Part shown: positions 48,801 through 51,800 of the stretch, in pieces
How the letters are laid out: each line of letters begins with the position of its first letter
Position numbering within the stretch: position 1 is the stretch's first letter
Assembly: GCF_000027125.1 (NCBI RefSeq)
Contig: NC_017627.1
Length of the DNA: 64,000 nucleotides
Strand: one strand, 5' to 3'
DNA from: Escherichia coli 042
Lineage (GTDB): Bacteria; Pseudomonadota; Gammaproteobacteria; Enterobacterales; Enterobacteriaceae
Program-made: the position numbers

Positions 48801-51800
48801 GCGGATAAGTGTCTGTAATAACGCCGGCGTCAGTTTACCTTTAAGCCTGAGAGTTCCGGCCGGCAGAACCAGCTCACAACACAGACTGTCGGACGGTGTA
48901 TTTATCTGCTCTGGTTCCTGTGCGGGGGCCGGGATTTTATTATCCGGCTCCGGCGTTAACGTCACGGGAAGCAGTGCCGGCATATTTTTTCCGGAAGGCA
49001 GCAGGCCACCTTTCCGGTATTGATGGCGCCAGTTGAAGAGCAGGTTATCGTTGATTCCGTTTTCCCGGGCGATCTGCGCCACACAGGCTCCGGGCTGCAG
49101 TGACTGCTCCACTAAGGCGATTTTAAACTCATAAGGGAAGTTGGGCCGCCGGGGACGTTTTTTTACCACGGGGGCTTCGGATATAACGGTGCTTTCAGGA
49201 CGTACGACTGGTACCGTGGAAAATTGTCCGTAAAGGCAGGCATCAAGTTCCTGCTCCGACATGCCTGCGGGCAAAGGCCACGAAAGGCCAGCTCTCCGAA
49301 AGCGCACGAACATACTACAAACTGTTGATTTTGGTACACCCAGGCGACGCCCGGCCACAACCCGGGGTAAATGTTCTTCAAAGTGAAGACGTAAAGCTTC
49401 AGTGATCCAGGTCCGGTGTTTCATACGATAGTGTCCATTAAAAATGATGGACATTATTTTTGTAGAGCCGGAGGAAACAGACCAGACGGTTTAAATGAGC
49501 CGGTTACGATGGTGTGTCATCTCTGCATTGAGAGCGGCTTCAACGCTGAGCTTTTTCAGCAGCCGATCAAACTGACTGAGGTCTTCAGGGGTTTTGAGGT
49601 TTTTGGCCAGTTCGTTAGCCAGAGCCTGTAACTGTTTTTCGTCCATAAATTAACCTTCATTTGATGCTGGATTGAACATATCAAAATCAGGCAATTACAC
49701 AAATCTATGTACAGACTCAACCGGGTTGATGAACTCCTGCCATGGAACGTAGTACTCACCAATAAATAAGCGTCAATACGGTGCTCCGTTGACGCTTACG
49801 AATGGTGGAATGACTGAGTGGACCTAACTGCAGGGCGATAGCCCGGACAGATAATTGCTCGTCGAATCTTAGACGTAATGCGTCTGGCAAATAAGAGCGA
49901 AAACCGGTGATATCTTTTGCTGTCTGAGAATTCATCGTTCGTGTCCATCAATATAGATGGACGCGATTGTTGCCAGACAGGACAACCATCACAAGACGTT
50001 ACAGACGGAGCGCTTACTTTTGTGAAATTAATCAAAAAATATAAAATCACGACTTAATACGGAAAAAACTCTGTGCTACTCAGAACTGTCCGGTCATACT
50101 TCCCGACCGGATATTAAAAAAAGCAAATCTCATAAACTTCTTTCAGCCTTCTGAATCCCTGGAGTAATGAAGGCTGCTTTTTTCGTTACACCCTTCCCCG
50201 GCTGCGCCGGTGGCAGTGTTCAGCCCTTTTTCGGGCAAACTGCTGCCAGTCTGTCCGGGGCGCAACACCGGCAGCCCGTCGCCATGCTTCTGCCGCTTCC
50301 ATCCAGCGTCCACTGACCTCCAGAATAACGGCCCGGCTTCCGGCACGCTGCCAGCGCCAGACCTGACCGTTCCGTGAACTGTTTCTGAATCCATTCATCT
50401 TTATCACTCCTCTTTAACCCGTCAGTATTATGGTGTTAAATAATCTACTGAATTGGCTTCCTTTCGGGTACGGAAGTTATTTCCTTTTAAGCCTTATTTC
50501 CCTGCCTCCTCTCTGATGGAGGCTTTTTTTTATTTCTCATCAAGCACGGCCTGAAGTTCTGCCTTTATCCGGTTCTGGCGGCGGATTTTATCCAGACGCG
50601 CTGCCGCATACGCTTCCTCCTCCTGAGAAATATGCTCCGTCACATACCCTTCCGTGTCATACCGGCAGGCACCGGCTTTCATGGCACACAGATAGCTTTC
50701 TGAACGGGTGATGGCCTTCAGCGCCCTGCGCAGTTTTTTATGCGAGAGCGGGATATTCCGCTGCGCCACGTCTTCCAGTAACACGTCCCGGATACCGCAG
50801 GCCAGAAGCCGGGGCGTGTCACCGTCAAACAATCCCGGCCACCAGGGCTTCAGGGTGTTCACGGCCTCATCCAGTGTGGGCAGGTTCAGATAAATGGACA
50901 GCGCCTGTCTGGCCTGCGCTTTTTTTGCCGCCAGCTCTGCTTCCCGGGCTGCTTTCTCGGCCAGCTTCTGCTTTTTCACCTTCCACTTTGGTGGCGTGGT
51001 GACATTGATGATGGTTTTCCGGCTGCGGACAGGCGTCTCCCCTTCCGTTTTCCGCTTCAGTGTCAGTACCGGTCGCTTCTGCTCTGTCATGCTGTGTTCT
51101 GCCTCTGACGAATCATCCTGTTACGGTCAAAGATACCACACCCGTCACAGCGCCAGAACGCCCAGCACAGCCAGATGACAGGCGTAGAATACCGGGAAAA
51201 AATCCCCGGGCCAGAAACGGGGTAATGATTTTCCTGCACACGACACCAGACCAACGGTCAGCACCGTCATCACAAGACCGGCCACCGCCGCTGCATCACT
51301 GGTGGCAAGGTTAAGCGCCGGAATAACAGCCAGCAGGCAGGCGACCAGCGCCAGACGTTCCGCTCTGTCTTCCGCCCGGTACAGCCGGTGGCTGACTGCC
51401 AGCATCAGCAGCCCGGCAATGCCGTAACTGGTGCCGGACAAAGGCCCCCACAGGGCCATCAGAAGAATGGCCGCTGCTGTACGCCACCCACTGCGCGTTT
51501 CACACCACGTCAGCACCTGTGCCGCCACTGCAAAGGCAAACAGGATATTCCCCTCATACCAGGGAAAGCCTGCCAGATAATATGCGAACTGGGCAATAAT
51601 TCCCCATCCCCACAGCCGGTTAATGGCTGGTTGCCGGATATGCGCATGACGGGACAGATTCAGCCCCCACACCAGGGCAAAAAGCGGAAAGGCTCCTCGC
51701 CCGGTCAGAAACATCCATTCCTGCTTCAGCTGGAATATCAGATTGATGTGGTCCAGTACCATCAGCACCAGTGCCACCGTTTTGATGATATCCCGCTGTC

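Follow-up and report, generated by a model that had tools for sequence, protein, structure and literature searches.

A conserved palindrome between the left terminal repeat and tnpA of IS66-family insertion sequences, possibly a stem-loop over the tnpA ribosome-binding region

Two inverted repeats in a 64,000-nucleotide stretch of Escherichia coli 042 (contig NC_017627.1; the window, numbered from its first letter) belong, near certainly, to two IS66-family insertion sequences, each of which carries this conserved palindrome subterminally, past the left terminal repeat and ahead of tnpA. By analogy with IS10 and IS50 we favour, with a probability of about 0.45, the reading that the palindrome is a stem-loop hiding the tnpA ribosome-binding region. 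For the window itself the pair is ordinary mobile-element anatomy, and just marks a graveyard of insertion sequences.

When searching the 64-kb window for GTCCAT-N(4-10)-ATGGAC, exactly two matches are found, at 49433-49452 and 49943-49962, compared to 0.04 +/- 0.20 after shuffling (two or more in 0 of 100 shuffles), so that the two copies reported by an earlier, sequence-only reading are real. The hexamer alone is not enriched in the window (33 seen, 34 expected). Both copies have the pattern GTCCAT-N8-ATGGAC, and the two also form a direct repeat (37 nt, 73% identity, offset 510 nt). The second had been described exactly; for the first the repeat stands, with a spacer of 8 nt rather than 7 and an arm that starts at 49432 rather than 49433 (TGTCCAT at 49432-49438, TAAAAATG, then ATGGACA at 49447-49453). 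Allowing one mismatch per copy, the arms reach 11 nt in copy 1 (49428-49457; minus-strand reading ATAATGTCCAT-CATTTTTA-ATGGACACTAT; core TGTCCAT/ATGGACA, 49432-49453) and 10 nt in copy 2 (49940-49965; minus-strand reading CGCGTCCATC-TATATT-GATGGACACG; core 49943-49962). A minus-strand ATG lies 7 nt downstream of each copy, at 49424 (MKHRTW...) and 49935 (MNSQTAK...), so the unit of repeat plus gene start does occur twice, as had been proposed. The extended 3′ arm of copy 1 stops 3 nt short of its ATG.

Copy 1 is part of an intact ISCro1-family IS66-like element of 2699 bp (46809-49507, minus strand), 51-80 nt in from its left end; the element is identified by its boundaries and its TnpA, TnpB and TnpC matches. 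Insertions in 23 different contexts define the left boundary, and the right one follows from the homology in other plasmids, which begins at query position 210, that is 46809; the matching element is annotated as ISCro1 in hundreds of plasmids. The terminal inverted repeats, IRL (49482-49507, minus strand, GTAACCGGCTCATTTAAACCGTCTGG) and IRR (46809-46834, plus strand, reading inward GTAAGCGGCTCGTCAGAACCGTATTG), are imperfect, agreeing at 19 of 26 positions, and both start with 5′-GTAA (GTAACCGGCTC... at 49507 and GTAAGCGGCTC... at 46809). Between them are three consecutive minus-strand genes in the IS66 order: tnpA (48777-49424), tnpB (IS66 Orf2; 48430-48777; NF033819/PF05717), whose start overlaps the tnpA stop in TGATG (48775-48779), and tnpC (46839-48410; NF033517/PF03050), encoding an IS66-family DDE transposase of 523 residues. 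An 8-bp target duplication is absent around 46809-49507 (flanks ACACCATC and CAGCGACC), with IS1414 on one side and an IS630-family gene on the other; we therefore consider this copy to be rearranged, and not a member of another family.

Of a second IS66-like element only the left end remains, a 218-bp remnant (49800-50017, minus strand) that contains copy 2. It retains an IRL (49992-50017), the palindrome-bearing 5′ leader and a tnpA reading frame of 45 codons, running from 49935 down to 49800, where it is ended by the IS1414 insertion. Sequence identity of the remnant is 97.7% with an intact element carried by plasmid pMB6420_1 and about 80% with ISSfl4; as far as 49800 it aligns collinearly with L054, an intact element. 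The IS1414 (IS256 family) left-end fragment (49508-49799, minus strand, transposase codons 1-46) is in turn interrupted by the ISCro1-family insertion. The palindrome thus appears twice because an intact ISCro1-family element is nested with a piece of IS1414 and with a related IS66-like element reduced to its severed left end. The nest is located between finO and an IS630 fragment in an F-like plasmid. A scan of 46700-50500 with the covariance models of Rfam 15 (E <= 1) returned nothing save an unrelated AS-pc02 match at 50103-50289.

The sequence-only reading had taken the pair for a locally duplicated operator-plus-gene-start unit, possibly from an IS21-type istA. It was right that the two N-termini are related (BLASTP E 3e-4, 38% identity over 26 residues) and that they hold a helix-turn-helix: the AlphaFold model of TnpA residues 1-65 has three helices with a pLDDT of about 90, and the N-terminal profile matches the SorC helix-turn-helix with an E of 0.0047. 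Both peptides match the IS66-like TnpA family NF038385 (E 1e-88 for the first and 5e-9 for the second), the second frame (49800-49935) aligning to positions 1-35 and scoring under the full-length cut-off because it is truncated. No IS21 or IstA model was matched, and the genes following the first frame are an IS66 tnpB and an IS66 DDE transposase rather than IstB. An IS21 duplication could draw on two related units 510 nt apart and on a weak fold likeness to IstA, one among many to helix-turn-helix proteins (Foldseek E 0.35-0.5, no better than for the others), but each unit has an IS66-type terminal repeat of its own as its boundary, and the IS1414 fragment separates them. Since the two tnpA frames belong to two different elements split by that fragment, with the 37-nt repeat only 73% identical, the copies are left ends of two IS66-family elements, and both a local duplication and an IS21 origin are rejected. 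That reading had also said that it would be refuted if the peptides were those of a known transposase and the repeat had no role as an operator, and half of this is seen: the peptides are those of a known accessory protein of insertion sequences, and no published function for the repeat was found in the literature searched. TnpA of IS66 elements is an accessory protein needed for transposition, for which we know of no assigned biochemical role.

The first frame encodes 215 residues from the M at 49424, within an open reading frame of 48777-49454, and database and RefSeq annotation of ISCro1 TnpA gives 225 residues, from an ATG at 49454 within the 5′ arm of the palindrome. The possibility that the palindrome is coding, as the annotated extension MSIIFNGHYR implies, was considered and ruled out: relatives carry an in-frame TAG (ATAGTG) at the position of the upstream ATG, and the remnant is out of frame. 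The start that makes TnpA 10 residues longer is therefore non-coding. On this comparison the true ISCro1 TnpA probably has 215 residues, and the RefSeq start is probably wrong.

Among the 11 elements whose TnpA is 52-66% identical to that of ISCro1 (group A), column identity is 0.95 for the 31-nt palindrome, compared to 0.88 for the terminal repeat, 0.79 for the spacer between the two, 0.72 for coding sequence and 0.585 for third codon positions. No other non-coding segment of these elements is as well conserved as the palindrome, and its loop (0.955) is as conserved as its arms. The palindrome was identical in all 26 of the ISCro1 copies retrieved.

Looking across six lineages the arm sequences differ in the same register, with the outer arm wholly replaced and its pairing retained. 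In an alignment of the arms only, positioned manually by the conserved core, 79.5% of cells are paired and both sides have changed in 7 of 13 pairs; the covariation score is 0.26, whereas shuffles give 0.155, with none of 500 attaining 0.26, and sliding the partners gives no more than 0.126. These patterns indicate that pairing, not sequence, is kept in the arms. Loop lengths of 4, 6, 8, 9, 13 and 15 nt are found between lineages, and one element has an 18-nt loop insertion that places 26 nt between the arms. Mismatches in the arms are present even in the most successful elements, ISCro1 and ISSfl4, which counts against the stem-loop.

A palindrome that pairs in a strand-neutral way, exceeds the left terminal repeat in conservation and lies no more than 80 bp from it could be a DNA site or hairpin by which the transposase, or TnpA/TnpB, recognises or synapses the left end. 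However, no palindrome was found at the right end of the ISCro1-family element (IRR, 46809-46834), which argues against a transposase end-site; the distance from palindrome to start codon is better kept than that to the terminal repeat; and the spacer between repeat and palindrome is the least conserved segment. We consider a role in end recognition improbable.

The position of the palindrome relative to tnpA points rather to the stem-loop. In 19 representatives the invariant GGAC stops 7-9 nt short of the tnpA start codon (GGA, 8-10 nt), and a 13-nt segment of the 3′ arm ends 1-3 nt ahead of that codon in all 19, with predicted pairing probabilities of 0.65-1.0 for positions -14 to -8 in those lineages. 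The palindrome would then act in cis as a brake on tnpA expression at the translation-initiation region. Transcripts with both arms would fold into a stem-loop, the 3′ arm of which bears the only Shine-Dalgarno-like element, the GGAC, and a stem ending 0-3 nt ahead of the start codon would block ribosome loading. As tnpB, and probably tnpC, would be on the same message, the whole transposition module could be kept nearly silent, with protection above all against transcription entering from flanking DNA. Such an arrangement has precedents in IS10 and IS50, where the translation signals of the transposase are sequestered by mRNA structure (summarised in bioRxiv 10.1101/2025.01.24.634351). The predicted local folds support it, with -8.6 kcal/mol (z -2.7) for copy 1 and -15.7 kcal/mol (z -3.6) for copy 2. 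Against it, the ISCro1 fold is only marginally better than shuffles in a 54-nt frame (z -1.5), and for both copies the antisense strand folds better than the sense strand. Mismatched cells comprise 12 G.U on the sense strand and 14 A.C (G.U on the antisense strand), with no strand asymmetry, and this parity counts against RNA, since RNA under selection should prefer G.U.

The conservation of the loop is likewise not predicted by a pure hairpin, but is by a -10 element or a protein site. Under the stem-loop reading, a weak promoter of the element itself may have its -10 in the AT-rich loop (TTTAAT, TATAAT or TATATT), in which case resident transcripts would begin without the 5′ arm and escape the block; this is the most speculative step. 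A consensus scan found no convincing sigma-70 promoter on the minus strand for either window copy. When relatives are scanned with a position weight matrix, a -10 falls in the loop for L012, group B and group E and is weak elsewhere.

The same observations can be read as a DNA operator overlapping the tnpA promoter and bound by TnpA, which would repress its own gene. A symmetric dyad of 22-31 bp stands directly before the gene for a protein with two helix-turn-helix domains, either or both of which could be the reader: PF01527, common to all TnpA proteins, and the N-terminal one, similar to SorC and sigma-70 region 4. One of them in ISCro1 resembles the TnpA repressor of IS2, in a weak match that is below the cut-off for that model (E 1.7e-8). 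Loop conservation equal to that of the arms, and the lack of a G.U over A.C bias, are expected of duplex DNA; several lineages have their best promoter-like match with the -10 between the arms (TTGACA-N15-TATAAT in L012), and group C has both a divergent TnpA N-terminal domain and a different arm spacing. Against an operator, arm spacing varies from 4 to 15 nt between lineages, and is 26 nt in one element; the half-sites, about 15-16 bp from centre to centre, would face opposite sides of the helix; outer arms are completely replaced between lineages with pairing retained; the palindrome is fixed in position relative to the start codon; and the right end has no second site.

The site also does not track the N-terminal domain. 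A hairpin is kept at the same place in intact elements, group E among them, whose short TnpA (127-134 residues) lacks this helix-turn-helix; an intact IS66 element of 2412 bp, with a 127-residue TnpA of this kind, retains GTCCAT...CGGAC. The palindrome is thus independent of a particular TnpA domain, and binding by the N-terminal helix-turn-helix is correspondingly weakened, leaving PF01527 as a possible reader. Overall we consider an autorepressing operator unlikely, if a serious competitor, and somewhat less likely still the fuller version in which TnpA shuts down its whole operon and the changes in the arms record co-evolving pairs of protein and site; were this version true, such pairs would prevent cross-regulation among related IS66 elements in one cell. 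The same sequence may also serve in both ways, as an operator in DNA and as a trap for the ribosome-binding site in RNA.

Host proteins provide a further set of candidates. CsrA recognises GGA motifs and Hfq binds U-rich sequence, and a host RNA-binding factor of this kind, CsrA or else Hfq on a U-rich loop, could repress tnpA translation. The GGA is invariant, and groups D and E have two or three copies of (A/G)TGGAC, 13-18 nt apart, adjoining the start codon. Group D (Mixta, Erwinia and Cedecea; about 40% TnpA identity) has direct repeats of ATGGACAC, not an inverted pair, and its hairpin is weak, with 5 bp only, which also counts against the stem-loop. Groups A and B, however, have a single GGA in the hairpin, and the near-palindromic arm GTG-GA-CAC accounts for the direct repeat of group E, so that we hold a host factor to be very unlikely. 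By eye, none of the LexA, CRP, IHF and DnaA boxes fits the palindrome.

We also considered additional signals near the gene starts. A five-codon upstream reading frame (ATGGACACTATCG(T/C)(A/G)TGA) coupled to the tnpA start is found in only part of group A, being in frame in Xenorhabdus and Serratia elements, and was rejected as a general feature because groups B and C lack it. The motif ATGGACAC also occurs at the tnpC start of ISCro1, a coincidence since it is not conserved in relatives, which have ATGGAGACC, ATGGACTTC and ATGAACAAT. A matching hairpin sequestering the Shine-Dalgarno element of tnpC (48396-48420) was rejected as inconsistent (z -0.8 in ISCro1, -3.5 in L005, absent in L013). 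A terminator scan of both strands gave no match to an intrinsic terminator or antisense-RNA end, and a U-run follows the stem in ISCro1 only, being absent in groups B, C and E.

IS66-family elements, such as ISCro1, ISSfl4, IS679 and their relatives, are among the commonest on virulence and resistance plasmids of enterobacteria, and at least 5000 plasmid records hold fragments matching the 3.9-kb stretch. We found no description of the palindrome in the literature on repeats and regulation of IS66, IS679 and ISCro1, where an earlier mention is possible; it seems to be an undescribed part of known elements. As the most conserved non-coding sequence of the element, placed directly on the tnpA ribosome-binding region, it offers a concrete and easily mutated handle for probing how expression of the three-gene transposition module is controlled.

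The elements themselves are no different from the ISCro1/ISSfl4/IS679-type IS66 elements of Enterobacterales, sharing tnpA-tnpB-tnpC, the DDE domains and the GTAA terminal repeats, except that the window copy has no target-site duplication and the second is a 218-bp stump. As in IS1 and IS2 (InsA), a small helix-turn-helix protein is encoded first and a dyad adjoins its own gene. In those elements, however, the repressor site is the terminal repeat itself, at both ends, whereas this palindrome is internal, at the left end only and variable in spacing, with binding by TnpA hypothetical. The comparison with IS10 and IS50 differs in that the palindrome is not homologous in sequence, the gene under control would be the accessory tnpA rather than the transposase, the resident promoter between the arms is putative, and there is no sign of an antisense RNA like RNA-OUT, nor a conserved terminator-like tail on either strand. 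What is alike is the arrangement: an inverted repeat near the left end, a 3′ arm over the translation-initiation region, and a predicted block to translation of transcripts that carry both arms.

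The 64-kb window holds exactly two matches to GTCCAT-N(4-10)-ATGGAC (49433-49452 and 49943-49962), compared to 0.04 in shuffled sequences; the hexamer by itself is not enriched in the window. A minus-strand ATG lies 7 nt downstream of either copy, at 49424 (MKHRTW...) and 49935 (MNSQTAK...), and over 37 nt the units share 73% identity. This bears out the sequence-only reading of two such repeats in front of minus-strand frames, with copy 2 laid out as it described and copy 1 in need of correction, its spacer being 8 nt (TAAAAATG) rather than 7 and its 7-nt arm starting at 49432. 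The two N-termini are indeed related: BLASTP of one against the other gives E 3e-4, and both frames match the NCBIfam equivalog NF038385, 'IS66-like element accessory protein TnpA', the first (48777-49454) with E 1e-88 and the second (59 aa) over the first 35 model positions with E 5e-9. The first is followed on the minus strand by family matches to IS66 tnpB (48430-48777) and the IS66 DDE transposase (46839-48410). An IS21-type istA had been suggested as the source; nothing matched IS21, and the NF038385 matches together with the downstream tnpB and transposase rule this identity out. RefSeq/PGAP start the ISCro1 TnpA at ATG 49454, inside the 5′ arm, giving 225 aa (MSIIFNGHYR...), which is not supported, because most relatives carry ATAGTG there, so that a TAG stop in frame precedes the conserved start, ATG 49424, which would give 215 aa.

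The pair had also been taken for a local duplication of an operator and gene start; element boundaries show instead that these are the left ends of two related elements, juxtaposed by successive insertions. One is a 2699-bp minus-strand element, assigned to the ISCro1 family from the annotation of identical DNA in RefSeq plasmids, that runs from 49507 (GTAACCGGCTC...) to 46809. Its left boundary is seen in 23 independent insertion contexts, all diverging exactly at GTAACCGG, and its right boundary is where homology in other plasmids begins. Between the two IS66-type elements lies a left-end fragment of IS1414 (IS256 family; 49508-49799, the first 46 transposase codons), which truncates the second, leaving 218 bp (50017 to 49800) that comprise the terminal repeat, the leader and 45 codons. 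Plasmid pMB6420_1 carries an intact element collinear with this remnant and 97.7% identical to it; identity of the remnant to ISSfl4 is ~80%. The ISCro1-family element adjoins, on its other side, a fragment of an IS630-family transposase, and inspection of both flanks found no target duplication; they were therefore joined by rearrangement. The outer end of the IS1414 fragment also starts GTAAGCG, resembling IS66 repeats. The DNA adjoining the ISCro1 right end (46380-46808) has a 96.5% identical counterpart on EAEC-type plasmids, where the annotation names an IS630-family transposase gene and aar (AggR-activated regulator). The Rfam family AS-pc02, 'Antisense to pHK01_099', matches strongly at 50103-50289 (+) (191.8 bits, E 1e-50), opposite and overlapping a 73-aa minus-strand ORF (50186-50407) that barely passes as ANR (AraC negative regulator) family (32.9 bits, cut-off 32).

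IS66-type left ends for comparison came from genomes (52 loci), contigs of viral or plasmid-like character (80) and three plasmids. The ISCro1 palindrome (positions 51-80 from the outer end) takes the form ATA(G/A)TGTCCAT-loop-A(T/G)TGGACA(C/T)TAT in group A, which is ISCro1-like and found in Pantoea, Erwinia, Xenorhabdus, Serratia and Mixta. Group B, that of the remnant and ISSfl4, has CGCG(T/C)CCATC-TATAT(T/A)-GATGGACACG, and group C AATGTCC-N15-GGACATT. Among short-TnpA lineages there are GTCCAT-N13-CGGAC in Sodalis, AUAGUG-GA-CACCA-AAUA-UGGUG-GA-CGCUAU in the widespread group E, and ACTTAGA...TCTAAGT around GCCCATC...GACGGAC at a further locus, L122. In group D (TnpA identity ~40%) ATGGACAC is repeated directly and the hairpin is weak. 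Within group A, where TnpA is 52-66% identical to that of ISCro1, column identity is highest in the palindrome (0.95), followed by the terminal repeat (0.88), spacer (0.79), coding sequence (0.72) and third codon positions (0.585).

Several of these loci are unusual in other ways. One from Serratia sp. H1w (L014, ~3115-3167) carries an 18-nt self-complementary insert (AGATCTGGGGCGCAGATC) in the loop with both arms kept. On Shigella flexneri pCP301 (L055, 5937-6008) the ISSfl4 right end adjoins an ISCro1-like left end cut inside the loop, so that the ATGGACA arm alone is left. Group C TnpA (L087, L082, L007) is a mosaic, its C-terminal ~100 residues nearly identical to ISCro1 TnpA (48777-49424) and its N-terminal HTH domain and leader palindrome divergent, a pattern suggestive of recombination between IS66 elements inside tnpA. 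Enterobacterial IS66-like elements, nearly identical to those of E. coli and Shigella, also occur on contigs labelled Zoogloea, Thauera and Actinomycetes MAG (L007, L008, L018), likely as contamination; the coverage stated in the names of the Zoogloea and Thauera contigs is 1.1-1.7x.

The left ends show a conserved palindrome whose pairing is maintained by compensatory change and whose position is locked on the tnpA translation-initiation region. The arms alone were aligned for 18 distinct sequences spanning six lineages, with hand anchoring at the conserved CC/GG core; in this alignment 79.5% of cells are paired and both sides have changed in 7/13 pairs. The covariation score of 0.26 compares with 0.155 in shuffles (reached by 0/500) and at most 0.126 for slid partners, and the trend is the same when groups A and B and the Sodalis-type lineage are aligned with MAFFT. 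In the 3′ arm GGAC is invariant, and the 13-nt segment ends 1-3 nt upstream of the start codon in 19/19 representatives, so GGA sits at the Shine-Dalgarno position. Predicted pairing of positions -14 to -8 is 0.65-1.0, and local folds of the window copies reach -8.6 and -15.7 kcal/mol (z -2.7 and -3.6). The palindrome is not repeated at the element's right end, and it has no Rfam match and no conserved terminator. A perfect 8-bp inverted repeat (AAGTGAGG/CCTCACTT, 48396-48420) also surrounds the tnpC Shine-Dalgarno element and start codon; the fold is not significant in ISCro1 (z -0.8) or a Pantoea relative, and is stronger, in other sequence at the same place, in Xenorhabdus relatives (z -3.5).

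Our tentative reading, to which we give a probability of roughly 0.45, is a leader-RNA stem-loop that attenuates TnpA, and with it TnpB and TnpC. The stem-loop would mask the GGA ribosome-binding element of tnpA, and the effect would reach the other two proteins by way of their genes, which overlap or adjoin downstream. Three observations count against an RNA-only reading: among the arm mismatches 12 count as sense-strand G.U and 14 as A.C, the antisense strand of the window copies folds better, and the loop in group A is as conserved as the arms. The absent G.U bias and the loop conservation are better accounted for if TnpA binds the dyad as an operator over a promoter with its -10 in the loop, a less probable but serious rival, which fits less well with the variable arm spacing (loops span 4-15 nt) and with a start codon at constant distance. 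A consensus promoter scan of the minus strand found none; an approximate PWM places a -10 in the loop for locus L012 (TTGACA-N15-TATAAT), group B (TATATT) and group E (TATGGT), and is weak elsewhere. The earlier description of the frames as helix-turn-helix is reasonable, with modest support from the fold. An AlphaFold2 model of TnpA built from a 20-sequence alignment (mean pLDDT 71) is confident in three regions, with disordered linkers between them: an N-terminal three-helix domain (residues 1-65, pLDDT ~90), a second (residues 98-137, PF01527) and a C-terminal beta-hairpin and helix. A profile search matched a SorC HTH (E 0.0047), and Foldseek returned weak HTH matches alone (sigma-70 region 4, DeoR, SorC, KorA, Mos1, IstA), none at E <= 0.001. 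An intact element of 2412 bp whose TnpA, at 127 aa, lacks the N-terminal HTH still keeps the palindrome, whose retention is thus independent of that domain. The operator and the stem-loop are not mutually exclusive.

The elements themselves are known, and inverted repeats that cover the translation start at the left end of an IS are an established type of device; an incomplete literature search found no account of this palindrome in IS66-family elements. The proposed leader stem-loop would have read-through transcripts as its main target, and in this the IS66 elements would resemble IS10 and IS50, where mRNA structure sequesters the translation signals of the transposase.
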